Source: Candidatus Binatia bacterium (GTDB lineage Bacteria; Desulfobacterota; Binatia; UTPRO1). Taken from it: a stretch of DNA of 64,000 nucleotides. The notes under the pieces were generated by a model. It saw nothing but the letters and a program-made list of their open reading frames with translations. It searched no databases and had not been told where the DNA came from. The DNA lies in NCBI GenBank assembly GCA_036496285.1, contig DASXLI010000019.1, positions 8,244 through 72,243 on the forward strand, written 5' to 3'. The position numbers were made by a program, and so were the translations under genes. Shown piece after piece: positions 2,686 through 23,821 of this stretch; within the stretch, counting starts at the first letter, position 1, and each line of letters begins with the position of its first letter.

Positions 2686-4314
2686 ATGCTTGACGAGCAG
2701 GAGAAGCCGACGGCAACCCGGCAGCGGCCGAGTGGCGACTTCGATGCGGTGATCGTCGGCGCCGGGTTCGCCGGGCTGTGCATGCTGCATCGTCTCCGCC
2801 GGCTCGGGTTCTCGGCACGGGTCTTCGAGGCGGGTAGCGGCGTCGGCGGCACGTGGTTCTGGAACCGCTACCCGGGCGCGCGCTGCGACGTCGAGAGCAT
2901 GGAGTACTCGTACCAGTTCTCCGCAGAGCTCCAGCAGGAATGGGAGTGGACCGAACGCTACGCGTCTCAGCCAGAGATCTTGCGCTATCTCAACCACGTC
3001 GCCGACCGCTTCGACCTCCGCCGGGACGTCCAGCTCAATACACGCGTGCAGTCGGCGGTGTTCGACGAGGCCGCGCGTCGATGGCGAATCGAGACCGACG
3101 ACGGTGGTCGGGTGTCGGCGCGGTTTTGCATCATGGCGACGGGCTGCCTGTCGTCGACCAATACGCCGCGATTCAAAGGTCTCGACTCCTTTGCTGGCCT
3201 GACGGTGCACACCGGCCGCTGGCCGCACGAGGGCGTCGACTTTGCCGGCACGCGGGTCGGTGTCATCGGCACGGGCTCTTCCGGCATCCAGGTCATCCCG
3301 CTGATTGCGGCGGAGGCGGCGCATCTCTTCGTGTTCCAGCGGACCCCGAACTACTCGGTGCCGGCGCGCAATCACCCGCTCGACACGAGCACGCAGCGGC
3401 AGGTCAAAGCGGACTATTCCGGCCTCCGGCAGCGCGGCGGCCAGATGCCGTTCGGCTTCGACACGCGATCCAGCGAGAAGTCCGCGCTCGACGTGACAGA
3501 CCAAGAGCGGCGGGCCGAGTACGAGGATCGCTGGGCACAGGGCGGTCTGCCGTTTCTCGGCGCGTTCGCGGACATGCTGTTCAGCCAGGAGGCCAACGAC
3601 ACCGCGGCCGAGTTCATCCGCGGGAAGATCCGCGAGATCGTGCGCGATCCAGGAATCGCCGACATGCTGTCCCCGCGGACGGTTGTCGGTTGCAAGCGCC
3701 TCTGCAGCGACACCGACTACTACGCGACCTTCAACCGGCCGAACGTCACCCTCGTCGACCTGCGGAGCTCGCCCATCGAGGAGATTGTCGCGCACGGTCT
3801 CAGGACCAAGGACCGGGAGTACACGCTCGACTGCATCGTGTTCGCCACCGGGTTCGATGCCATGACCGGAGCCCTCACGCGGATCCACATCCGCGGCGCC
3901 GGCGGCATCACACTCGAGCAGAAGTGGGCCGAGGGTCCACGCACCTATCTTGGCATCGCCACGGCCGGCTTCCCGAACCTGTTCATCATTGCTGGTCCCG
4001 GCAGCCCGTCGGTGTTGTCCAACATGGTCCCGTCGATCGAGCAGCACGTCAACTGGATCTCCGCCTGCATCGACTATATGCGCGAGCACGAGCTCGAAAG
4101 CATCGAGCCGATCGTCACCGCGGAGAACGCGTGGGTGTCACACGTCAACGAGGTGGCGGACGGGACGCTCTATCCCTCGTGCAACTCGTGGTATCTCGGG
4201 GCGAACATCCCGGGAAAGCCGCGCGTCTTCATGCCGTACCTCGGCTTCCCGGCCTACGTGCAGAAATGCGAAGAGATCGTGGCGAACGGCTACGAGGGAT
4301 TCGCGTTGGCGTGA
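2686..4314 (+). CDS. type I Baeyer-Villiger (flavin-dependent) monooxygenase
   Basis: 542 aa. It has a GxGxxG FAD motif (VIVGAGFAGL), GGTWFWNRYPGARCD, the BVMO fingerprint FAGLTVHTGRWP and a second Rossmann motif, VGVIGTGSSG. A GAGGAGG RBS precedes the ATG. Confidence 0.9.
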   Translation: MLDEQEKPTATRQRPSGDFDAVIVGAGFAGLCMLHRLRRLGFSARVFEAGSGVGGTWFWNRYPGARCDVESMEYSYQFSAELQQEWEWTERYASQPEILRYLNHVADRFDLRRDVQLNTRVQSAVFDEAARRWRIETDDGGRVSARFCIMATGCLSSTNTPRFKGLDSFAGLTVHTGRWPHEGVDFAGTRVGVIGTGSSGIQVIPLIAAEAAHLFVFQRTPNYSVPARNHPLDTSTQRQVKADYSGLRQRGGQMPFGFDTRSSEKSALDVTDQERRAEYEDRWAQGGLPFLGAFADMLFSQEANDTAAEFIRGKIREIVRDPGIADMLSPRTVVGCKRLCSDTDYYATFNRPNVTLVDLRSSPIEEIVAHGLRTKDREYTLDCIVFATGFDAMTGALTRIHIRGAGGITLEQKWAEGPRTYLGIATAGFPNLFIIAGPGSPSVLSNMVPSIEQHVNWISACIDYMREHELESIEPIVTAENAWVSHVNEVADGTLYPSCNSWYLGANIPGKPRVFMPYLGFPAYVQKCEEIVANGYEGFALA

Positions 4315-4373
4315 CCGGGTCCGACGCATTCTCCCGTACCGTGGCCGGCGCACGGACACCTGAAGGAGCCGAC

Positions 4374-4721
4374 ATGGACCAGCCGAAGATTCGCGTCGTC
4401 GATCGGGCCGAGTGGAACGCACGACAACACCATCGGGATCCAGTCTTCGCCCGAGACGGGTGGCGCTGCGCCGTCCCCGGATGCAGCGCCCGGCGCAACT
4501 TGCACGACCATCACATCGTCTTCCGCTCACACTGCGGCGGCAACGCGCGCGACAATCGGGTCGCCATCTGCGCGGCACACCACCAGCACGGTCTCCATGG
4601 CGGCGGGTACGTGCGCGCCTGGGGAGAGGCTCCCAGCGCGGTACACTGGGCGCTCGGGGTCCGCCGGGGTGCGTCGCCGTTGTTGACGCTGATCGGCGAT
4701 CGCTACGTCGGCAACGGCTGA
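4374..4721 (+). CDS. stand-alone HNH endonuclease domain protein
   Basis: These are the last 115 codons of track ORF 2853-4721. The ATG at 4374 is preceded by GAAGGAG. The sequence DGWRCAVPGCSARRNLHDHHIVFRSHCGGNARDNRVAICAAHHQHGLH matches the HNH (CxxC...HH...N...C..HH) layout. Confidence 0.75.
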   Translation: MDQPKIRVVDRAEWNARQHHRDPVFARDGWRCAVPGCSARRNLHDHHIVFRSHCGGNARDNRVAICAAHHQHGLHGGGYVRAWGEAPSAVHWALGVRRGASPLLTLIGDRYVGNG

Positions 4722-4754
4722 GGAGGAGATCGAATGCCGACGTTGAGCTAGATG

Positions 4755-5534
4755 CTACCGGCCCTTCCATTGCGGCTTGCGCTTCTGCGTGAACGCGACG
4801 ACGCCCTCCATCATGTCCTCGGACTGGAAGAGCGAGCCGATCAAGGGATAGCTGCGCGCCATCGCGTCGTTGAGCGGCATGCCGAGGCCGTCCATCGCGG
4901 CCTGCTTGGTGGCGCGCACCGAGGTCGGCGAGCACTCGAGGATCGTGTCTGCGAGGCGCGCGGCCGCGGCGCGGAGATCGGCGGCGGGCACCACCTCGTT
5001 CACGAGGCCGAGCGTACGCGCCTCCGCCGCCGTGACCTGCTTGCCGGTGAGCATCATGCCCATCGCGAGCTTCAGCGGGATCTGCCGCGGCAGGCGGTGC
5101 ACGCCGCCGGCGAGGGCGGCGAGGCCGACGCGCGGCTCGGGAAGACCGAAGCGCGCGTGCTCGGCGGCGACGATCAGGTCGCACGCGAGCGCCAGCTCGA
5201 AGCCGCCGCCGAGGGCAAAACCGTTCACGGCAGCGATCGTCGGCTTCGCGAGGTCGAAGCGCGCGGTGATGCCGCCGAAGCCGCCGCTGCCGAGCGTGAT
5301 GCCCTTCGTGCCGTGCTCCGCGGTGTACTTGAGGTCGTTGCCGGCGGAGAACGCCTTCTCACCCGCGCCGGTCAGGATCGCGATCCAGCACTCGGGATCG
5401 GCGGCGAAGTCGTCCCAGGCGGCCGACAGCTCGAGGTTGGCCGGTGGATGGAGCGCGTTCATGACGTCCGGGCGGTTGATCGTGATCCACGCCACCCGCT
5501 CCTTCTTCTCGTAGCTGATGAACTCGTAGGCCAT
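4755..5534 (-). CDS. enoyl-CoA hydratase/isomerase (crotonase) family protein
   Basis: The real start, MAYEFISYEKKERVAWITINRPDVMNAL, lies inside the longer track ORF and has an AGGAG RBS. Crotonase motifs present: FSAGNDL, AAVNGFALGGGFELALACD, FGLPEPRVGL. Confidence 0.9.
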   Translation of the reverse strand: MAYEFISYEKKERVAWITINRPDVMNALHPPANLELSAAWDDFAADPECWIAILTGAGEKAFSAGNDLKYTAEHGTKGITLGSGGFGGITARFDLAKPTIAAVNGFALGGGFELALACDLIVAAEHARFGLPEPRVGLAALAGGVHRLPRQIPLKLAMGMMLTGKQVTAAEARTLGLVNEVVPAADLRAAAARLADTILECSPTSVRATKQAAMDGLGMPLNDAMARSYPLIGSLFQSEDMMEGVVAFTQKRKPQWKGR

Positions 5535-12122: not shown

Positions 12123-12689
12123 GTGGTCAAGGCGAGCGGGACGACGACCATGACGCGCGGCCGGTTCCTGCGCCTCGAGTGGCTGCTCTCCGCGGCGATG
12201 GTCACGATCGGCCTCGCGTGGGCGACGCTGCGGCACCTGCCGATCGCCGCGCGCTGCCAGCCGACGCCGATCGCGATCGCGTCGGGGGCGCTCGTCGGCG
12301 CCCTGCTGTGGCTCGCGATTCCGCTCCTCTTCTGGGCGCCCGCGATGCGGCGCGTGCGCGATACGACGCTCCTACCGTTCAGCCGCTCGCTCCGCACCCG
12401 CGACATCGCGGTGATCGCCGTGCTCTCGGGCGCATCGGAGGAGTTCTTCTTCCGCGGCGTGCTGCTGCCGGAGGTCGGGCTCGCGCTCTCCAGCGTGCTG
12501 TTCGGCCTGCTGCACGCGGTCAACTGGATCTACGTCGCCTGGGCGGCGGCGACCGGCGCGGGGCTCGGGCTCCTCGCCAACCACGGCGGCTCGCTGGTGG
12601 CGCCCGTCGTCGCGCACGCCACGTACAACTTCGGCGCGCTCATACTGCTCCGCCGTCAGGCAATGACGCCCGACGCCGAGCGGCGCTGA
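12123..12689 (+). CDS. CPBP family (CAAX-type) intramembrane metalloprotease
   Basis: Contains SEEFFFRGVL (EExxxR), FGLLHAVNW and VVAHATYNF. Start uncertain (GTG 12123 or ATG 12150). Confidence 0.8.
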   Translation: MVKASGTTTMTRGRFLRLEWLLSAAMVTIGLAWATLRHLPIAARCQPTPIAIASGALVGALLWLAIPLLFWAPAMRRVRDTTLLPFSRSLRTRDIAVIAVLSGASEEFFFRGVLLPEVGLALSSVLFGLLHAVNWIYVAWAAATGAGLGLLANHGGSLVAPVVAHATYNFGALILLRRQAMTPDAERR

Positions 12690-12776
12690 CCCGCGCACGA
12701 ATTGCGTCCTTGCCCGGCTTCCGTTAGCGTCGAGCGGCACGAGCGTCCCCGTTCCGCGCGCTCGGGAGGAGCCGAC

Positions 12777-13808
12777 ATGACCCGTCTCGCGATTGTGCTC
12801 GTGGCGCTCGTCGCCACCGCCGGCTGTGGCAGCAGCACCAAGCCGAAGCTCAGCGCAGACGCGTATTACAAGGACGCGTCCGACGCCTTCGCGAAACGCA
12901 ACTACGATGTCGCCGCCAACCACTACAAGGAGCTGCTCGACCAGTATCCGTTCGATCCGCGCGCTGAGGAGGCCGAGCTGAAGATCGCGACCGCGCACTA
13001 CAAGAGCCATCACTACCCGGAGGCGATCGCGGCCTTCAACGACTTCCAGCGCATGCATCCGATGAGCCCGCACCTCGCCCAGGTCTACTACCTGCTCGGC
13101 AAGAGCTACATGGATCAGATGACGACGACCGACCGCGATCAAGGCGCGTCGGAGAACGCGCACGGCTGGTTCCGCGTCGTCATCGAGCGCTATCCGACCA
13201 GCCCGTACGCGGCGAAGGCCCAGCACCGTCTCGTCCAGTGCCGCTACGCGCTCGCCGATCACGAGCTGCGCATCGCCAGGTACTACCTGAAGCGCGGCAA
13301 CCTGAAGGCCGGCGAGAACCGCGTGAAGGGCCTGCTCGAGAACTACCCTGACGCCCCCGCAACGACACGTGGGCTCATGGCGTTGGCCGACGCCTACGCC
13401 AAGGTCGGCGACCACGAGCACGAGAGCGTCGCCCGCGCCGCGATCGCCGAGCGGCCGAGCCCCGAGGACGTCGAGAGCAAGCTCGCAACGAGCGCGCCGA
13501 AGGGGAAGAAGTCCGACAGGAAGAAGGACAAGAGCACCCAGACGGCCGCGGCCGACCCCCCGGCGGGTGCAGACGACCCGCCCGCACGCGTCGTCGCGGC
13601 GACGGCGCCGACCGTCAGCGGACCGGCGTCGACGCAGCTGCTCGCCGACCTCACCGCGCGCTACGGCCCGGGCCAGGGGGTCAGCACCGCCGCAACCTCG
13701 CCCTCGCTGCTCGATCCGGTCAAGAACAAGGCGAGCCTGCTGGGCGACCGTGCCGCCGGCGGCGGTGCCGGGGCGCCGAGCAGCATGGCACCGCTCGGCG
13801 GGTACTGA
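12777..13808 (+). CDS. bamD: outer membrane protein assembly factor BamD-like TPR lipoprotein
   Basis: The ATG at 12777 follows GGGAGGAG. It has a lipobox, LVATAGC. TPR-like YfiO pattern present: AHYKSHHYPEAIAAFNDFQRMHP, YPTSPYAAKAQHRLVQCRYALADHELRIARYYLKRGN. The C-terminal tail is low-complexity. Confidence 0.8.
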   Translation: MTRLAIVLVALVATAGCGSSTKPKLSADAYYKDASDAFAKRNYDVAANHYKELLDQYPFDPRAEEAELKIATAHYKSHHYPEAIAAFNDFQRMHPMSPHLAQVYYLLGKSYMDQMTTTDRDQGASENAHGWFRVVIERYPTSPYAAKAQHRLVQCRYALADHELRIARYYLKRGNLKAGENRVKGLLENYPDAPATTRGLMALADAYAKVGDHEHESVARAAIAERPSPEDVESKLATSAPKGKKSDRKKDKSTQTAAADPPAGADDPPARVVAATAPTVSGPASTQLLADLTARYGPGQGVSTAATSPSLLDPVKNKASLLGDRAAGGGAGAPSSMAPLGGY

Positions 13809-13809
13809 G

Positions 13810-14505
13810 GTGCGTGACGCCGCCGTCGCCATCGTGGGCGTCGGCGCGCTCGGCTGCGCGGCTGCCGAGGGACTCGCCTGCGCCGGGGTCGGCCGCCTCG
13901 TCCTCCTCGACGGCGACGTCGTGGAGCGCTCCAACCTGCATCGCCAGCTCCTGCACCGCGACGCCGACCGCGGGCGCCCGAAGGTCGAGTCGGCGGCCGA
14001 GCGTCTGGCGGCGCTCGCCCCCGGCTGCGCGATCGATTGCCGGGCGGTCCGCGTCACGGCCGAGAACGCCGTGGACCTGCTCGCCGACGCGACCTGCATC
14101 GTCGACGCGACCGACGGCTTCGAGAGCAAGTTCCTGCTGAACGACGCCGCCGTCGCGCTCGGCACGCCGCTCGTCCACGCCGGCATCGTGCGCTTCCTCG
14201 GGCAGCTGATGACGATCATCCCCGGGCTGAGCGCCTGCTATCGGTGCCTCTTCGTGGCGCCGCCGCGCCCGGGCGACGTGCCGTCCTGCCAGGAGGCCGG
14301 CGTGCTCGGCTCCCTCGCGGGGACCATCGGCCTCTTGCAGGCGGCCGAGGTCCTTCGCTACCTGACCGGGAGTGGTCCGCTCCTGACCGACCGGTTGCTC
14401 ACCTACGACGCGCTGGCGAACCGCTTCCGCCACGTTCGCTTGCGCCGCAACCCGTCGTGCCCGGTATGCGCCGCGAGGCTCGCGGCAGCCCCCCGCAACC
14501 GCTAG
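13810..14505 (+). CDS. ThiF/MoeB-type adenylyltransferase (E1-like), N-terminally short (called ThiF-A here)
   Basis: GTG start 1 nt after the bamD stop. The protein starts VRDAAVAIVGVGALG (GxGxxG). It has ERSNLHRQ, GRPKVE, DATD and two CxxC pairs (CYRC, CPVC). No RYSRQ N-terminal segment and no rhodanese domain are present. Confidence 0.85.
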   Translation: MRDAAVAIVGVGALGCAAAEGLACAGVGRLVLLDGDVVERSNLHRQLLHRDADRGRPKVESAAERLAALAPGCAIDCRAVRVTAENAVDLLADATCIVDATDGFESKFLLNDAAVALGTPLVHAGIVRFLGQLMTIIPGLSACYRCLFVAPPRPGDVPSCQEAGVLGSLAGTIGLLQAAEVLRYLTGSGPLLTDRLLTYDALANRFRHVRLRRNPSCPVCAARLAAAPRNR

Positions 14506-14531
14506 AAGAACCCGAAGAGAGGAGAGTCAGC

Positions 14532-14813
14532 ATGGCCATCCAGGTTCGCATCCCCACCCCGCTCCGCAAGCTCACGGGCGGCGCCGAGTCCGTGAGCGGC
14601 AGCGGCGCCACCGTCGCCGCCCTCGTCCAGGACCTCGAGACCCGACACCCCGGCCTCAAAGAGCGCATCTGCGACGACGCCGGCAAGGTACGGCGCTTCG
14701 TCAACGTCTACGTGAACGGCGACGACATCCGCTTCCTCGACAACCTCGACACGCCCGTGAAGGACGGCGACGAGATTTCGATCGTCCCGGCAATCGCCGG
14801 CGGCACGCGCTGA
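14532..14813 (+). CDS. cysO: CysO-type (ThiS/MoaD fold) sulfur-carrier protein
   Basis: 93 aa. IQVRIPTPLRKLTGGAESVSGSGATV...RFVNVYVNGDDIRF...GDEISIVPAIAGG closely parallels my recollection of M. tuberculosis CysO. The protein ends GG-TR-stop. An RBS (GAGAGGAGAG) lies upstream. Confidence 0.85.
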   Translation: MAIQVRIPTPLRKLTGGAESVSGSGATVAALVQDLETRHPGLKERICDDAGKVRRFVNVYVNGDDIRFLDNLDTPVKDGDEISIVPAIAGGTR

Positions 14814-14855
14814 GCCGGGCGCCACTGCTTCTCGCGACCGACGCGCACCGACCTC

Positions 14856-15773
14856 ATGGCGGGCCCGAACGTCCTGAGCCTCATCGGCAACACGCCGCTC
14901 CTGCGCATTCGCGGGCTCGCCCGCGACGTGCCCGAGGGCGTGCGTGTCTTCGCCAAGCTCGAGGGCTTCAATCCGGGCGGCTCGGTGAAGGACCGTCCGG
15001 CCTACAACATGCTCCGCCGCGGCCTCGAGAGCGGCGAGCTGCGGCCGGGCAAGACGATCCTCGACTCGACGTCGGGCAACACCGGCATCGCGCTCGCGAT
15101 GTGCGGCGCGGTCCTCGGCTATCCGGTCGAGCTGGTGATGCCGGAGAACGTCAGCGCGGAGCGCAAGAAGATCATCAGCGCCTACGGCGCAAAAGTGATC
15201 TTCTCGAGCCCGCTCGAGGGCTCCGACGGTGCCATCCGCCTCTGCCGCGAGGTGCTGAAGCGCGACCCGGAGAAGTATTTCAAGCCCGATCAGTACTTCA
15301 ATCCGGCGAACCCCGAGGCGCACTACAAGACGACGGGCCCCGAGATCTGGGAGCAGACGCAGGGCACGGTGACGCACTTCGTGACCGGGCTCGGCACCGG
15401 CGGCACGATCATGGGCACGGGACGCTATCTCAAGGAGCGCAATCCGAAGATCCAGGTGATCGGCGTCGAGCCCGACGACGCGTTCCACGGCCTCGAGGGC
15501 CTGAAGCACATGGCGAGCTCGATCGTGCCGGGCATCTACCACGAGGAGGAGCTCGACGGGAAAATCCCGGCGCCCACCGAGGAGTCCTACGAGATGGTCC
15601 ATCACATCGGCGCGGTGGAGGGCCTGGTCGTCGGGCAGTCGTCGGGCGCCAACCTCTATGGCGCACTGCAGGTCGCGCGCACGCTCGAGCGCGGCACCGT
15701 GATCACCGTCTTCTGTGACTTCGGCGACCGCTACCTGAGCACCAACCTCTGGATCGGCTGGCAAGGCGCCTAG
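14856..15773 (+). CDS. cysM: PLP-dependent cysteine synthase, CysM (CysO-thiocarboxylate/O-phosphoserine type likely)
   Basis: 305 aa. Motifs: IGNTPLLRI, KLEGFNPGGSVKDRPA (PLP lysine), TSGNTGIALA and GLGTGGTIMG. It lies directly downstream of cysO. Confidence 0.9.
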   Translation: MAGPNVLSLIGNTPLLRIRGLARDVPEGVRVFAKLEGFNPGGSVKDRPAYNMLRRGLESGELRPGKTILDSTSGNTGIALAMCGAVLGYPVELVMPENVSAERKKIISAYGAKVIFSSPLEGSDGAIRLCREVLKRDPEKYFKPDQYFNPANPEAHYKTTGPEIWEQTQGTVTHFVTGLGTGGTIMGTGRYLKERNPKIQVIGVEPDDAFHGLEGLKHMASSIVPGIYHEEELDGKIPAPTEESYEMVHHIGAVEGLVVGQSSGANLYGALQVARTLERGTVITVFCDFGDRYLSTNLWIGWQGA

Positions 15774-15786
15774 CGCCGCGATCGCC

Positions 15787-16365
15787 GTGCGCTTCGACGA
15801 CGCGCAGATCGAGCGCTACAGCCGGCAGATCGTCCTGGCCGAGATCGGACCGAAGGGCCAGGAGACGCTCGCGGCCGCGCACGTCGGCGTGGGCGTCGTC
15901 GGCCCGGCGGCGGAGCGGGTGGTCGCCTATCTGGCGGCGGCGGGCGTCGGCCACCTGACCGTCCCCGCGGCGCTCCGGCCGCTCATCGATCCGGCGCAGC
16001 CCGACGTCACGCTCGCGCCGTGGCCGCCCGCGCCGGGCGCGCACCTGGACGCCGTGCTCGCCGCTCCCGGCGGGAGCGTGGAGGCGCGGCGCCGCTTCTG
16101 GACCGACGGCGGGCGCGCCGCCGAGGTCCCGCCCTGCGCGGCGTGTGCCGCCGCCGCTCTTGGCCCGGAGGACGACGTCGATCCGCTCCTCGCCCCGCTT
16201 CGCGCCGCGGTCCTCGGCACGATCGTCGCGACCGAGATCGTGAAGGCGCTCGTTGGCATTGGCTCGGGGCTGCGCGGCAGCGTGCTCGTCTACGACCCGT
16301 CGAGCGCCGCGTTCACGAGCGCGCCGGTCGCGCCGCGCCTGTCGTGTGCGGTCTGCGCCGGATGA
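15787..16365 (+). CDS. degenerate ThiF/MoeB-like protein lacking adenylation residues (called ThiF-B here)
   Basis: 192 aa with a GTG start. The N-terminus QIERYSRQIVLAEIGPKGQETL matches the MoeB/ThiF N-terminal arm. The nucleotide loop is degenerate (GVGVVGPAAE). The SNLxRQ/K/D segment is replaced by Pro/Ala-rich sequence. It retains CAAC and CAVC pairs and the C-terminal VLVYDP...F segment. Confidence 0.65.
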   Translation: MRFDDAQIERYSRQIVLAEIGPKGQETLAAAHVGVGVVGPAAERVVAYLAAAGVGHLTVPAALRPLIDPAQPDVTLAPWPPAPGAHLDAVLAAPGGSVEARRRFWTDGGRAAEVPPCAACAAAALGPEDDVDPLLAPLRAAVLGTIVATEIVKALVGIGSGLRGSVLVYDPSSAAFTSAPVAPRLSCAVCAG

Positions 16366-16453: not shown

Positions 16454-16525
16454 ATGACGCTAGGCTCTTTGCTCCATCGCACTCGCCGCACGATGCCGCT
16501 CGCCGGCCGCGGAGTCCGTTCGTGA
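16454..16525 (+). promoter_or_regulatory. candidate 23-codon upstream ORF translationally coupled to sat
   Basis: AAGGAGG at 16437-16443, then ATG at 16454. It encodes [23 protein letters not shown]. Its TGA (16523-16525) overlaps the sat GTG (16522-16524). Confidence 0.3.
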
Positions 16526-17679
16526 GCGGCGCGACGATCCTGCCGCACGGCGGCACGCTGGTGAACCGCTGGGCGACCGACAAGGAGCGCGCGCAGTGGA
16601 TGGGGGAGCTGAAGCAGCTCAAGCACATCAAGCTCACGGCACGTGAGATCTCCGACCTCGAAATGATCGGTGTCGGTGCCTTCAGCCCGCTCGAGGGCTT
16701 CATGGGCGAAGCCGACTACCGCGCGACGCGCGAGCGCATGCGTCTCTCCAACGGCCTGCCGTGGACGATTCCCGTCACGCTCTCCGTCACCAAGGAGAAG
16801 GAGCGCGACCTGCACGCCGGCGACGACGTCGTCCTCTACGAGGACGACCGGCCGCTCGGCATCCTGCACCTCGCGGAGAAGTTCACCTACGACAAGGAGC
16901 GCGAGGCCGCGGAGGTGTACGGCACGACCGAGGCCGCGCACCCCGGCGTCAAGGTCGTCTACGACCAGGGCGACGTCTACCTCGGCGGCAAGATCACCCT
17001 GCTCGACCGGCCGAAGGAGATCCCGTTCCGCGAGCATCGTCTCGATCCGCTCGAGACGCGCGCCCTCTTCATCGAGCGCGGCTGGAAGCGCATCGTCGCG
17101 TTCCAGACGCGCAACCCGGTGCACCGCGCGCACGAGTACATCCAGAAGTGCGCGCTCGAGATCGTCGACGGTCTCCTGTTGCACCCGCTCGTCGGCGCGA
17201 CCAAGGGCGACGACATCCCCGCCGACGTGCGCATGGAGTGCTACAAGGTCCTGCTCGACAAGTACTACCCCAAGGACCGTACGGTGCTCTCGGTGCTGCC
17301 CGCCAACATGCGCTACGCCGGCCCGCGCGAGGCGATCTTCCACGCCATCATCCGCAAGAACTACGGCTGCACGCACTTCATCGTCGGGCGCGACCACGCG
17401 GGCGTGGGCTCGTACTACGGCACCTACGACGCGCACTACATCTTCGACAACTTCACCGCCGAGGAGATGGCGATCACGCCGCTCTTCTTCGACCACACCT
17501 TCTTCTGCAAGGTGTGCGACAGCATGGCGTCGGCGAAGACCTGCCCGCATCCGTCGACCGAGCACATCGCGCTCTCCGGAACCAAGGTGCGCGAGATGCT
17601 CGCCGCCGGCCAGCGGCCACCGAAGGAGTTCAGCCGCCCCGAGGTCGCCGACGTCCTGATCGGATCGATGCGCAAGTAG
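16522..17679 (+). CDS. sat: sulfate adenylyltransferase (ATP sulfurylase)
   Basis: 385 aa. Motifs: [19 protein letters not shown] and [10 protein letters not shown]. Confidence 0.9.
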
Positions 17680-20022: not shown

Positions 20023-20637
20023 CTAGCCGCGCGGCACGTGGCCGTTGCTCTCGAGGTACTGCAGGATCTGGCGGGCGCTCGCCTCGACGGATTGTCCGGC
20101 GGTGCGGATCGTCAGCTCCGCCTTCTGGGGGGCCTCGTACGGCGCCGAGATGCCGGTGAACTCCTTGATCTCGCCGGCCCGCGCCTTCTTGTAGAGGCCC
20201 TTCACGTCGCGCTGCTCGCAGACCTCGACAGGGCAATCGACATGCACCTCGACGAAGTCGCCCTGCCCCATCAGCACCCGCACCTGATCGCGGTCGGCGC
20301 GGTAGGGCGAGATGAAGGCGGTCAGGGTGACCAGGCCGGCGTCACTGAACAACTTCGCGACCTCGCCGATGCGGCGGATGTTCTCCGTGCGGTCGGCGGG
20401 CGAGAAGCCGAGGTTCTTGTTGAGGCCGTGGCGGACGTTGTCGCCGTCCAGGATGTAGGCGCGGACGCCCCGTTCCCAGAGCCGCTTCTCGAGGTCGACG
20501 GCGATCGTCGACTTGCCCGAGCCGGAGAGGCCGGTGAGCCAGACCGTACAGCCCTTGTGGCCGTTCATCTTCTCGCGGTCCGCGCGCGTCACCGCGCCCT
20601 GGTGCCATACGATGTTCGTCGCCTTCTGCTCCGCCAT
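20023..20637 (-). CDS. cysC: adenylylsulfate (APS) kinase
   Basis: 204 aa. Motifs: [25 protein letters not shown] and SPYRADR. Confidence 0.9.
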
Positions 20638-20736
20638 GGGACAAAAGCATTACCGGGGACCGCGTACAGCGGCAAGCGGCAATCGTGCGCGTGCGGAATC
20701 CGACCGAGACGTGAGCCCGCGCACCATTGATGGGCA

Positions 20737-21945
20737 ATGCCCTCGAGAAAAATCGGGGAGCACCCGGAAAGCGCCGAAAGCGCATTGACACTCGCGCGCC
20801 GGCCGACGATAGACCCGCTCACTATGGACACGTTCAGCCATCCCTCCGGCAGCGCCGCGCAGGCGCACCCCATCATGCTCCCCGAGGGCGGCGCCGAGGA
20901 GCGCATCGGATCCGCCTTCCCGACCGTCTTCACCTGGGACTACCGTGTCCGCCACGACGAGCTGATGCGGCTCTACGAGAAGGGCAAGGCGATGCAGTGG
21001 AACGCCGCGACCGACATCGACTGGTCGATCGACGTCGATCCGTCGCGCGCCACCGCCGAGGAGATGGGCATCATCGACGGCATCCTCGCGCTGCCGGAGC
21101 AGCTGCCGCTGGCGCGCCGGCGCGAGCTCGACCTGCACTTCAACGCGTGGCTGCTGTCGCAGTTCCTGCACGGCGAGCAGGGCGCGCTGCTCGCGACCGC
21201 CCAGATCGTCAACACCGTGCCCTGGACCGAGGGCAAGTTCTACGCCGCCAACCAGGTCGCCGACGAGGCGCGGCACGTCGAGGTGTACCGCCGCTACCTC
21301 ACCGAGAAGCTCGGCGTGAGCTATCCCGTGAACCGCCACCTGCACACGCTGCTGTCGCAGATCATCAGCGAGTCGCGTTGGGACATGATCTATCTCGGCA
21401 TGCAGATCATGGTGGAGGGCCTGGCGCTCGCCGCGTTCGGCCTGATGCGCTTCACCGCCGCCCGCGAGCCTCTCATCCAGCAGATCACGAGCTACGTGAT
21501 GCGCGACGAGGCCCGCCACGTCGCCTTCGGCATCCTCTCGCTGCAGGATCTCTACACGAAGGAGCTCAGCAGCGCCGAGCTGAAGGTACGCGAGGAGTTC
21601 GTCATCGAGGCGACGATGCTCATGCGCGAACGGTTGCTGATGGAGGAGGTGTGGCCGCGTCTCGGTCTCGACTCGAAGCGCTGGCTCTCGTGGTCGATGA
21701 ACACGCCGTTCATGGTCGGCTTCCGCCAGATCCTCTTCTCGAAGATCGTGCCGAACCTGAAGCGGCTCGGCCTGCTCACGCCGCGTGTCCGGAAGACGTT
21801 CGCCGATCTGCAGATCCTGGAGTTCGAGTCCTTGCCGGACTCGACCGCCGAGTCGGAGACGGCGATGCCGCCCGCGCTGCTGACGTTCTTCATGCGCCTG
21901 CAGGCGGCCGGGATCGAGCTGCCCGGCCTCGCGACGAGCGGCTGA
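20737..21945 (+). CDS. ferritin-like di-iron carboxylate protein (AurF/R2-like oxygenase family)
   Basis: ExxH pairs DEARHVE and DEARHVAF, plus single Glu helices (FLHGEQGA, IMVEGLAL). Start uncertain (ATG 20737 or 20824; neither has a clear RBS). Confidence 0.65.
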   Translation: MPSRKIGEHPESAESALTLARRPTIDPLTMDTFSHPSGSAAQAHPIMLPEGGAEERIGSAFPTVFTWDYRVRHDELMRLYEKGKAMQWNAATDIDWSIDVDPSRATAEEMGIIDGILALPEQLPLARRRELDLHFNAWLLSQFLHGEQGALLATAQIVNTVPWTEGKFYAANQVADEARHVEVYRRYLTEKLGVSYPVNRHLHTLLSQIISESRWDMIYLGMQIMVEGLALAAFGLMRFTAAREPLIQQITSYVMRDEARHVAFGILSLQDLYTKELSSAELKVREEFVIEATMLMRERLLMEEVWPRLGLDSKRWLSWSMNTPFMVGFRQILFSKIVPNLKRLGLLTPRVRKTFADLQILEFESLPDSTAESETAMPPALLTFFMRLQAAGIELPGLATSG

Positions 21946-22249: not shown

Positions 22250-22723
22250 TCACTCCGTATCCGCGCCGATCACGATGATCAGGACGCCGGTTTCCTGCTT
22301 CGGACCCCCGAGCAGTAGCACACCGTGGTCGCGCAGCGCCACCGACGTGTCGATCAGCGGCCGCCCGCCCTCGAGCAGCATCACCTGCATGCCGACCTTC
22401 GAGTCGCGGAACTCCTTCGGCGCCACCACCAGGTAGCGCCCGCCGGGGATGTCGAAGCTCGCGCCCTGCCCCCAGTCGAGCCCGCGGCGCTCCTGCTTCA
22501 TCAGGCGATACGAGGCATAGCGGAAGAGGCTGTCGAACTGCGGCTTCATCGCGATCAGGCGGGTGTCGAACTCGGGCGTGCCGCCGTCGGTCGCGAGCAC
22601 GCTGCCGACGGTGACGGTGACGCCGCCCGCGCACGCCGGCGCCGCCGGGAGCAGCGCGACGGCCGCCGCGAGCGCAAGCGCCGCGGCGAGGACGGGCGCC
22701 GATGCGCCGGCAGCGCGCCTCAC
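22250..22723 (-). CDS. exported hypothetical protein
   Basis: 157 aa with a signal peptide, AAALALAAAVALLPAAPACAGG. Its start overlaps the anti-sigma stop (4-nt overlap at 22720-22723). No family recognised. Confidence 0.55.
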   Translation of the reverse strand: MRRAAGASAPVLAAALALAAAVALLPAAPACAGGVTVTVGSVLATDGGTPEFDTRLIAMKPQFDSLFRYASYRLMKQERRGLDWGQGASFDIPGGRYLVVAPKEFRDSKVGMQVMLLEGGRPLIDTSVALRDHGVLLLGGPKQETGVLIIVIGADTE

Positions 22724-23214
22724 CTGGCGCCCTCGTCGATCCAGATCACGGTCGTGTTGCTGACCGGCTCGGAGAAGAGCGCCACCGAGGGCGCGTCGCT
22801 CACCAGGCTGTCGATGCGGGCCTGGTTGTTCGGCGGGCCCTGCGTCGCGGCCGAGAGACTCGCGCCGGCGCGCCAGATTTCGAGCGCGCTCACCAGCAGC
22901 GCGACGGCCATCACCGCGGCGATCACCGCCGGCCGCGCCGCCAACGCCCGCAGGCGCTCGCCGACGCCGCCGAACGAGCGCTGCACCACCTCGGCCTGCC
23001 CGGCGATGTCGGCCCAGAAGCGCGTGAAGTCGACGCGCGCAACGGCCTCGTTGACGCCCTCCACGATCAGCTCCTGGAGCCGCTCGAGCTCCTGCAACAG
23101 GCGCTCGCAGGCGGGGCAGCGCGTGACGTGCAGCGCGACGACGCGCATGCTGCGCGCCTCGAGCTCGCCGTCGAGAAAGCGGTCGAGCATGTTCTCGATG
23201 TCGCGGCAGATCAT
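22720..23214 (-). CDS. anti-sigma factor with an N-terminal zf-HC2 zinc finger
   Basis: HVTRCPACERLL (Hx3CxxC), followed by a TM segment (PAVIAAVMAVALLVSAL). It lies directly downstream of the ECF sigma gene. Confidence 0.75.
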   Translation of the reverse strand: MICRDIENMLDRFLDGELEARSMRVVALHVTRCPACERLLQELERLQELIVEGVNEAVARVDFTRFWADIAGQAEVVQRSFGGVGERLRALAARPAVIAAVMAVALLVSALEIWRAGASLSAATQGPPNNQARIDSLVSDAPSVALFSEPVSNTTVIWIDEGAR

Positions 23215-23236
23215 GCGCGCACGCGCCGCCTGGTGC

Positions 23237-23803
23237 TCACAGGCAGTCCTGCAGCAGCGTCTGCAGCTTCTTGCGCGCGTAGTGGAGGCGGCTCATCACC
23301 GTTCCCTTCGCGCATTCCATGACGCGGCTGATCTCGTCGTACGAGAGCCCTTCGACCTCGCGCAAAAGTATGACCGCCCGATGTTCGGGGGTCAATTGAT
23401 CGATGGCGGCGCGCACGCGCTCGCCGATCTCGCGGCTCTTCACGCGGCGGAACGGATCGTCGCGCCGCAGCTCGTCCTGGATTCCCTCCTGCGCCTCGAG
23501 GGCCGCCTCGGGCACCGACGTGACCGTCGGGCGGTGCCACTCGTGCCGCTGGTAGTCGATCGCGAGGTTCACGGCGATGCGGTAGAGCCAGGTGTAGAAG
23601 CTCGCCTCTCCCTTGAACTGGTCGAGGCTGCGAAGGGCCTTGAGGAAGGTCTCCTGGGATGTCTCCCAGGCGGCCTCGTGGTCATGCAGCATGCCGAGCA
23701 CGACCGTGTAGATCTTGCGCTGGTAGCGCTCGACGAGCTCCTGGAACGCCGCCCGATCGCCGGTGCGCGCCAACCGCACGAGCTCGGCATCGGTCCGTTC
23801 CAC
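23237..23803 (-). CDS. ECF (sigma-70 group IV) RNA polymerase sigma factor
   Basis: 188 aa. Region 2 reads AFQELVERYQRKIYTVVLGML..EDVAQ-like..FYTWLYRIAVNLAIDY. Region 4 reads LREVEGLSYDEISRVMECAKGTVMSRLHYARKKL. Confidence 0.9.
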   Translation of the reverse strand: MERTDAELVRLARTGDRAAFQELVERYQRKIYTVVLGMLHDHEAAWETSQETFLKALRSLDQFKGEASFYTWLYRIAVNLAIDYQRHEWHRPTVTSVPEAALEAQEGIQDELRRDDPFRRVKSREIGERVRAAIDQLTPEHRAVILLREVEGLSYDEISRVMECAKGTVMSRLHYARKKLQTLLQDCL

Positions 23804-23821
23804 CCGGGCGCCACTCCCCTA

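Follow-up and report, generated by a model that had tools for sequence, protein, structure and literature searches.

Why should the genes for a sulfur carrier and a cysteine synthase be bracketed by two different members of the ThiF/MoeB family, each lacking what the other retains? The locus that raises this question lies in a 64,000-nucleotide stretch of DNA from a Candidatus Binatia bacterium (DASXLI010000019.1; about 70% G+C; hereafter, the window), where thiF-A (positions 13810–14505, 231 amino acids), cysO (14532–14813, 93 amino acids), cysM (14856–15773) and thiF-B (15787–16365, 192 amino acids) follow one another on the forward strand. In the symmetric homodimers formed by MoeB and ThiF, an N-terminal arm and an active site are both present on each chain (PMC12355090, PMC10557695). 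The presence of an RYxRQ arm and an active site on one chain, a trait of the ThiF family, is found in neither ThiF-A nor ThiF-B. Comparison of the sequences makes it probable, if well short of certain, that the two proteins assemble into a single-site heterodimer, in which the arm of ThiF-B would complete the ATP site of ThiF-A in trans, and which would adenylate CysO for use by CysM.

ThiF-A is an active-type adenylation subunit without the N-terminal arm. It matches the Pfam ThiF profile (PF00899) with 237.9 bits against a cut-off of 28.1 (E=1e-70) over profile positions 19–238 of 238 only, aligns with residues 29–248 of Escherichia coli MoeB, and is 38–40% identical to MoeB and ThiF over the whole adenylation domain. 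All the ATP- and Mg-binding elements are kept (GVGALG, LLDGD, SNLHRQ, RPKVE and DATD), together with SCQEAG, a crossover-loop cysteine and two CxxC pairs. The SNLHRQ motif (13930–13947, forward strand) contains Arg45, which by sequence and MoeB alignment is the equivalent of MoeB Arg73, a residue that contacts the ATP phosphates (for the key MoeB residues, see PMC12355090). The protein is collinear with MoeB 29–248, without an insertion, an extension or an inserted cysteine domain, and neither a rhodanese nor a ubiquitin-fold domain was found in it by Pfam or in the MoeB alignment. This build is shared by its relatives: among the best 120, which are 65–93% identical and come from a 5.8-billion-protein collection, SNLxRQ and DxxD are present in all 120 and the two CxxC pairs in 119, and the arm motif occurs in none of these clusters compared with 116 of 117 canonical MoeB/MoeZ proteins obtained in a separate search.

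A protein that appears to lack its N-terminus could, of course, owe this to a mis-called start or to a frameshift that hides the arm, and the in-frame open reading frame before ThiF-A does stay open for 147 codons. Codon composition, however, speaks otherwise. From 13810 onward, the G+C content at third codon positions (GC3) is 0.94, whereas the same frame upstream has a GC3 of 0.71 and a G+C content at second positions (GC2) of 0.92, as expected of an out-of-frame reading of another gene, so that the ThiF-A frame is non-coding before 13810 and the start is placed there. The frame that is coding by composition in this region is that of the preceding gene, bamD, whose low-complexity tail has a GC3 of 0.92 and whose stop codon lies 1 nucleotide from the GTG start of thiF-A (TGAgGTG). 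The 450 nucleotides before the Rossmann loop were scanned in every frame for R[YFW]x[RK]Q, in the window as well as in 13 close loci, and the upstream region of five distant thiF-A loci for R[YFW]x[RK][QHN]; neither pattern occurs. In loci L007, L102, L003 and L001, in-frame stops 18–30 codons before the Rossmann loop (18 codons in L007) leave too little room for an arm. The claims of the original prediction that ThiF-A starts at the Rossmann loop with a full adenylation set, and that no arm motif is concealed upstream, are borne out, the former by the Pfam and MoeB alignments and the motifs, and the latter in all frames of 19 loci as well as in the 120 relatives.

ThiF-B shows the opposite pattern, that of a degenerate, inactive-type subunit that bears the arm. 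It scores above the Pfam ThiF cut-off (35.9 versus 28.1 bits), with a match in two stretches: residues 4–59 align with MoeB 5–60, the RYSRQ included, and residues 115–191 with MoeB 170–248, and the MoeB stretch in between, approximately 110 residues long and containing Arg73, Lys86 and Asp130, has given way to about 55 Pro/Ala-rich residues. The nucleotide loop reads GVVGPA, and the remaining ATP-site motifs are absent, likewise across the alignments of the ThiF-B family. What is left is a reduced Rossmann core that includes the first beta-alpha unit, along with a long helix (136–155), the zinc cysteines and the N-terminal arm (E9-R10-Y11-S12-R13-Q14, encoded at 15811–15828 on the forward strand), in which Arg13 is aligned with MoeB Arg14. 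An AlphaFold2 model of the protein is a compact fold with a predicted local distance difference test score (pLDDT) of 93 and a predicted TM-score (pTM) of 0.86, and its best matches in the PDB are ThiF and MoeB (query TM-score, TMq, about 0.7). This two-segment alignment with MoeB agrees with what had been foreseen for the arm, the loop and the Pro/Ala-rich substitute for the SNLxRQ/Lys/Asp stretch. The expectation of two CxxC pairs holds in part: the cysteines are kept in ThiF-B itself, but the fourth is not conserved across its family.

Alignments of 21 and 72 ThiF-B family members show little or no variation at E9, R10, Y11, S12, R13, Q14, G21, G24, Q25, Y48, L49, A52, G53, G55, C117, C120, E150, K153 and C187. 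The arm (residues 1–28) ranks highest in conservation, followed by the first beta-alpha unit and helix 136–156, and the degenerate middle part ranks lowest. The patterns of the arm and loop, [AE]Q[IV]ERYSRQ and YLAAAGVG, are also present in canonical MoeB. Since the conserved cysteines are only those of the zinc site, ThiF-B is unlikely to serve as a rhodanese-like donor of sulfur. The complementarity between ThiF-A and ThiF-B in arm and active site is far beyond chance.

That ThiF-B might be a functionless, degenerating duplicate is the other half of the artefact explanation, and the protein is indeed Ala/Pro-rich and has the highest ratio of nonsynonymous to synonymous substitution rates (dN/dS) in the operon. 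Its pairwise values of 0.26–0.49 (ThiF-A, 0.17–0.26; CysM, 0.07–0.17; bamD, 0.17–0.49) are nevertheless well below 1, such that ThiF-B is under purifying selection and is a maintained gene rather than a relic; it remains unbroken in 17 loci, at identities as low as 32%, has a GC3 of 0.93 and is predicted to fold with confidence. The pseudogene, frameshift and alternative-start explanations were each rejected on the grounds of the upstream motif scan, dN/dS and codon composition, and we find it hardly credible that artefact or decay accounts for both proteins. Thus, homologs of ThiF-B, whose absence or decay in relatives the original prediction had counted against itself, turn out to be abundant, syntenic and under purifying selection. 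As an aside, in one contig (L093, 1–2468), cysM, thiF-B and sat are all frameshifted, and given that the three genes are affected alike, assembly or sequencing errors are a better explanation than a thiF-B pseudogene.

How widespread are such proteins? Searching 1.84 billion representatives with a ThiF-B profile, we recovered 483 proteins at E≤1e-30; among the best 150 of these, 119 lack SNLxRQ, of those 116 have the arm, and only 13 have GxGGxG. About 66 clusters of 180–220 amino acids are 43–99% identical to ThiF-B, and a broader group with identities near 32% is built alike. By these profile matches, the degenerate arm-bearing ThiF proteins make up a sizeable family that has no name. In public databases, relatives of ThiF-B go under the names 'molybdopterin/thiamine biosynthesis adenylyltransferase', 'SAMP-activating enzyme' and 'hypothetical protein', and as these proteins have no ATP-binding motifs, the enzyme annotations are probably wrong. 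A further variant of the family is P0205 (390 amino acids), in which an N-terminal rhodanese-like domain is fused to a partly degenerate ThiF part that has a DRYSRQ arm and the Asp motif and lacks SNLxRQ.

If the two proteins work together, their genes should travel together, and for the most part they do. Orthologous loci were gathered in two ways: proteins were looked up, and metagenomes were scanned with the C-terminal half of the ThiF-B alignment (17 loci from the scan). The order thiF-A–cysO–cysM–thiF-B is found in 12 near-clade loci with sufficient flank, the window counted, among which CysM is 77–96% identical. The same frame, with extra genes, recurs in five distant-clade loci (L008, L107, L108, L111 and L112), where ThiF-B, only about 32% identical, is again arm-bearing and degenerate and ThiF-A is again arm-less. 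There are departures from this pattern. Loci L099, L100 and L101 (approximately 2700–5300) contain cysO–cysM–thiF-B with an OsmC-like gene upstream and with neither thiF-A nor bamD in the locus, an arrangement that implies a tighter linkage of ThiF-B than of ThiF-A to cysO–cysM, and in L020 and L109, the B-like gene is alone. Solitary B-like genes are what one would expect if ThiF-B paired with a full-length ThiF or MoeB encoded elsewhere, or formed B2 homodimers that bind CysO, acting as a sink or an inhibitor; the absence of any other ThiF from the 64 kb of this genome that were seen leaves room for such a partner. A canonical MoeB, however, has an arm of its own, which would make that of ThiF-B redundant, and the conserved co-location with an arm-less ThiF, along with the gene fusions described next, points to ThiF-A as the partner, so that we regard pairing with another protein, or with itself, as improbable.

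Nature has also joined the two kinds of subunit in a single chain. The ThiF-B profile search yielded two fusions, P0148 (448 amino acids) and P0241 (468 amino acids), and a follow-up search added P0261 (449 amino acids, five member sequences), which is 89% identical to P0148; P0241 is independent. In each of them, the N-terminal half is B-like, with a RERYSRQ or MERYHRQ arm, a degenerate loop and no SNLxRQ, and the C-terminal half is A-like, opening at the Rossmann loop and containing all the catalytic motifs. The gene for P0261 (L110, 3038–4387) is followed, after 4 nucleotides, by one for a PP-loop ATPase of the ThiI/MnmA type, a neighbor that places this fusion in a sulfur-relay context, and is preceded by a histidine kinase gene. 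The AlphaFold2 model of P0148 (mean pLDDT 80.5, pTM 0.83) is matched by ThiF and MoeB from the PDB over one half only (TMq 0.45–0.48), and by the single-chain ubiquitin-activating enzymes (E1) UBA1, UBA6 and UBA7 with a TMq of 0.62–0.70, normalized to the 448-residue query, a level that can be reached only if both halves are placed like the inactive and active adenylation domains of these enzymes.

Taken together, this comparative evidence makes it most likely that A and B physically pair, that the arm reaches the ATP site of ThiF-A and that CysO is the substrate. Under the proposed mechanism, ThiF-A would hold the sole ATP/Mg site and the pocket for the CysO C-terminus but lack the helix-and-arginine arm that each protomer of the MoeB homodimer lends to its partner. 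ThiF-B, which would not bind ATP, would take the place of the second protomer against ThiF-A, and its ERYSRQ arm would complete the ThiF-A site in trans, resulting in one active site per dimer; helix 136–155 of ThiF-B may contribute to dimerization, although this is a guess. At the level of sequence and fold, the pair does have what distinguishes heterodimeric E1s, namely two paralogous adenylation-fold subunits one of which is inactive, and such a dimer would be analogous to NAE1–UBA3, SAE1–UBA2, BilD and Tcd1–Tcd2.

Several observations weigh against this interpretation. Both the MoeB Arg14 and ThiF Arg11 fingers come from the neighboring subunit but are non-essential (PMC13139853, citing Lake 2001 and Nagy 2016), E. 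coli TcdA has no arginine finger, and the R59A mutation in Tcd1 cut activity by 26% only (PMC13139853). If the finger is dispensable, an arm-less ThiF-A homodimer might still work, leaving ThiF-B free for another role. In the P0148 model, the arm itself is of low confidence (pLDDT about 50), the alignment behind the N-terminal half is shallow, with only three sequences beyond the arm (MAFFT put B-like arms on the N-terminal half and B-like bodies on the homologous C-terminal half), and AlphaFold2 was trained on solved E1 structures. Moreover, the fusions come from other lineages and are not located beside cysO–cysM, and B-like genes at times occur without an adjacent thiF-A, as in the five loci mentioned above.

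The most serious competitor built on these points is that ThiF-A acts alone, as a TcdA-like arm-less homodimer, and that ThiF-B has some other job in the pathway: it might bind CysO or CysM as a non-catalytic scaffold or chaperone, regulate how the carrier is charged, or offer a docking site to the sulfur donor or to a tail-removing peptidase. Apart from the dispensability of the finger in MoeB and ThiF and its absence from TcdA, such a division of labor would fit the retention by ThiF-B of the C-terminal subdomain equivalent to MoeB 170–248, the region that touches the carrier in the MoeB–MoaD structure, as well as the persistence of thiF-B beside cysO–cysM in the three loci that lack thiF-A and its position closer to cysM (13 nucleotides) than to thiF-A. 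It gives no reason, however, for the arm being the best-conserved part of ThiF-B, for the loss of exactly that arm in every partner ThiF-A, or for fusions of B-like with arm-less A-like halves in a predicted E1-like arrangement, and we consider it unlikely, though by no means negligible. As for the heterodimer with a single site that the original prediction put forward, synteny, selection and the fusions strengthen it, whereas its description as obligate has to be tempered, given the dispensable finger in MoeB and ThiF and the warning provided by the modest loss of activity in the Tcd1 finger mutant.

A more general proposal, to which we attach slightly less than even confidence, is that the arm-bearing, ATP-site-dead ThiF family, to which at least 119 of the top 150 hits (clusters at 50% identity) belong, consists of dedicated inactive subunits for arm-less ThiF partners, in the form of both split pairs and fusions, and that an asymmetric E1 with one active site may have arisen independently in bacterial sulfur-carrier metabolism. 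Homodimer, heterodimer and fused pseudo-dimer would then all be extant, as a living series from MoeB to Uba1.

CysO, the presumptive substrate, is a sulfur carrier of the ThiS/MoaD family (Pfam ThiS, E=1.2e-20) encoded next to CysM, a pyridoxal phosphate (PLP)-dependent cysteine synthase (Pfam PALP, E=2.4e-75). It ends in AIAGG-TR rather than in GG, and its orthologs (L001–L105) have variable tails of 2 to 11 or more residues after the GG (TRA, SGARI, AAARA, AHPVGAV and others), with only that of L008 ending at GG. The two-residue tail of CysO must be removed before adenylation, so that a processing peptidase is needed. Among the approximately 45 window genes scanned, none encodes a JAMM/Mec peptidase or a rhodanese, either of which could lie outside the 64-kb window, and neither ThiF protein is fused to a rhodanese. 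After adenylation, CysO would be converted to the thiocarboxylate, which would supply cysteine synthesis by CysM; the activation of sulfate by the products of sat and the APS kinase gene would precede these steps.

These four genes belong to a tightly packed run at 12.0–17.7 kb, all on one strand, which opens with a gene for an Rce1-like CPBP intramembrane protease (12123–12689, forward strand; Pfam Rce1-like) and continues with bamD, which encodes a YfiO-type lipoprotein with a low-complexity tail of about 120 amino acids (12702–13808, forward strand; Pfam YfiO, E=1.7e-44). The gaps from bamD to thiF-B are 1, 26, 42 and 13 nucleotides, followed by 156 nucleotides between thiF-B and sat, the ATP sulfurylase gene (16522–17679, forward strand; Pfam ATP-sulfurylase, E=1.5e-99). 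No terminator-like sites were found in the scan of the bamD-to-sat interval, and an Rfam scan of the window gave zero matches. An adenosine 5′-phosphosulfate (APS) kinase gene follows on the reverse strand (20023–20649; Pfam APS_kinase, E=5e-73), and with sat and the APS kinase as neighbors, the cluster is placed in sulfate assimilation.

The surroundings show additional regularities. Wherever a locus reaches far enough, thiF-A has bamD upstream, which is missing only in the truncated L095 and L112; a gene for an outer-membrane assembly lipoprotein is thereby fixed, in divergent clades, to an operon for cysteine synthesis. Before bamD there is often an Rce1-like gene, the two having been seen in L001, L005, L007, L097, L098, L102 and L104. 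The thiF-B of the distant clade runs into the 5′ end of a conserved gene of 369–413 codons with a weak radical-SAM match (L008, 6675–7889; L111, 6711–7952; L112, 3296–4438; L108, 4823–5932), which is followed by genes for a Na/sulfate symporter and a Usp protein and by sat; L008 and L107 also contain a second, ThrC-like PLP enzyme and a NIL-domain protein. Beside the APS kinase gene in the window is a gene for an AurF/DUF455-like di-iron oxygenase (20731–21945), and an extracytoplasmic function (ECF) sigma factor with a zf-HC2 anti-sigma factor is encoded at 22720–23818, the same pair being present near the operon in L003, L108 and L111.

An asymmetric pairing of an inactive and an active adenylation domain has been treated as a hallmark of canonical E1s, and all known bacterial E1-like proteins, with the exception of BilD, have been said to form symmetric homodimers (in PMC12355090 or PMC10557695). 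With BilD, an asymmetric bacterial E1 is already known; what is new here is a two-gene pair in sulfur metabolism, along with natural fusions. A full-text literature search, which did not extend to the 2009 survey of the E1-like superfamily, found no two-gene heteromeric sulfur-carrier E1 in bacteria. If our interpretation is correct, E1 asymmetry would have evolved in primary sulfur metabolism as well and would be possible without a cysteine domain or an E2 conjugating enzyme. Duplication followed by complementary degeneration would then be a workable route to an asymmetric E1. The proteins also constitute a small, tractable system (231, 192 and 93 residues) for asking what the arm really contributes, a question left unsettled by the reported dispensability of the finger in MoeB and ThiF.

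Among the known systems, the E. coli pairs MoeB–MoaD and ThiF–ThiS (PDB 1JW9, 1JWA and 1JWB; 1ZUD and 1ZFN) are the obvious point of reference. ThiF-A shares with them all the ATP/Mg residues and the zinc site, ThiF-B shares the fold, and the carrier is likewise of the ThiS/MoaD family, but in the locus described here, the arm and the active site reside on two separate gene products. The CysO–CysM–MoeZ–Mec pathway of Mycobacterium tuberculosis resembles this locus in that cysO lies beside cysM in a sulfate-assimilation context. That pathway relies on one full-length MoeB-type protein, MoeZ, which carries a rhodanese domain at its C-terminus, and on the JAMM peptidase Mec; here, in contrast, there are two ThiF paralogs, the activator has no rhodanese, and no JAMM gene is present among the window genes scanned.

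In the eukaryotic heterodimers NAE1 (APPBP1)–UBA3 and SAE1–UBA2, the logic of dead and active paralogs is the same: the dead subunit keeps the arginine-bearing arm, and there is one active site per dimer. The ThiF-B profile weakly matches the arm segment of SAE1. Unlike the active subunits of these enzymes, however, ThiF-A has neither the catalytic-cysteine domain in the crossover loop nor the ubiquitin-fold domain, so that it does not qualify as a canonical E1 and would not hand its product, a sulfur carrier rather than a protein modifier, to an E2. ThiF-B, furthermore, falls well short of NAE1 and SAE1 in size and is nearest in sequence to MoeB and ThiF, which suggests an independent origin.

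The bacterial protein BilD combines inactive and active adenylation domains in one chain, and the former contributes Arg9 to complete the active site (PMC10557695), so that the view, taken in the original prediction, of such an arrangement as usually eukaryotic is outdated. The domain order of BilD is also that of the fusions P0148 and P0241 and of Uba1. BilD, however, has its domains in one chain, including a mobile cysteine domain, and works with an E2 in phage defense, whereas the present pair consists of two genes, has no cysteine domain and belongs to sulfur assimilation; no BilD-type E2 or JAB gene was found near the thiF pair in the window. Finally, Tcd1–Tcd2 of yeast is a ThiF-family heterodimer for the modification of tRNA to cyclic N6-threonylcarbamoyladenosine (ct6A), in which the Arg59 finger of Tcd1 serves the active site of Tcd2 (PMC13139853). 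It differs from ThiF-A and ThiF-B in being eukaryotic, in acting on tRNA and in belonging to the TcdA branch, but as a pair of ThiF-fold paralogs with complementary defects, it is the closest analog in logic.

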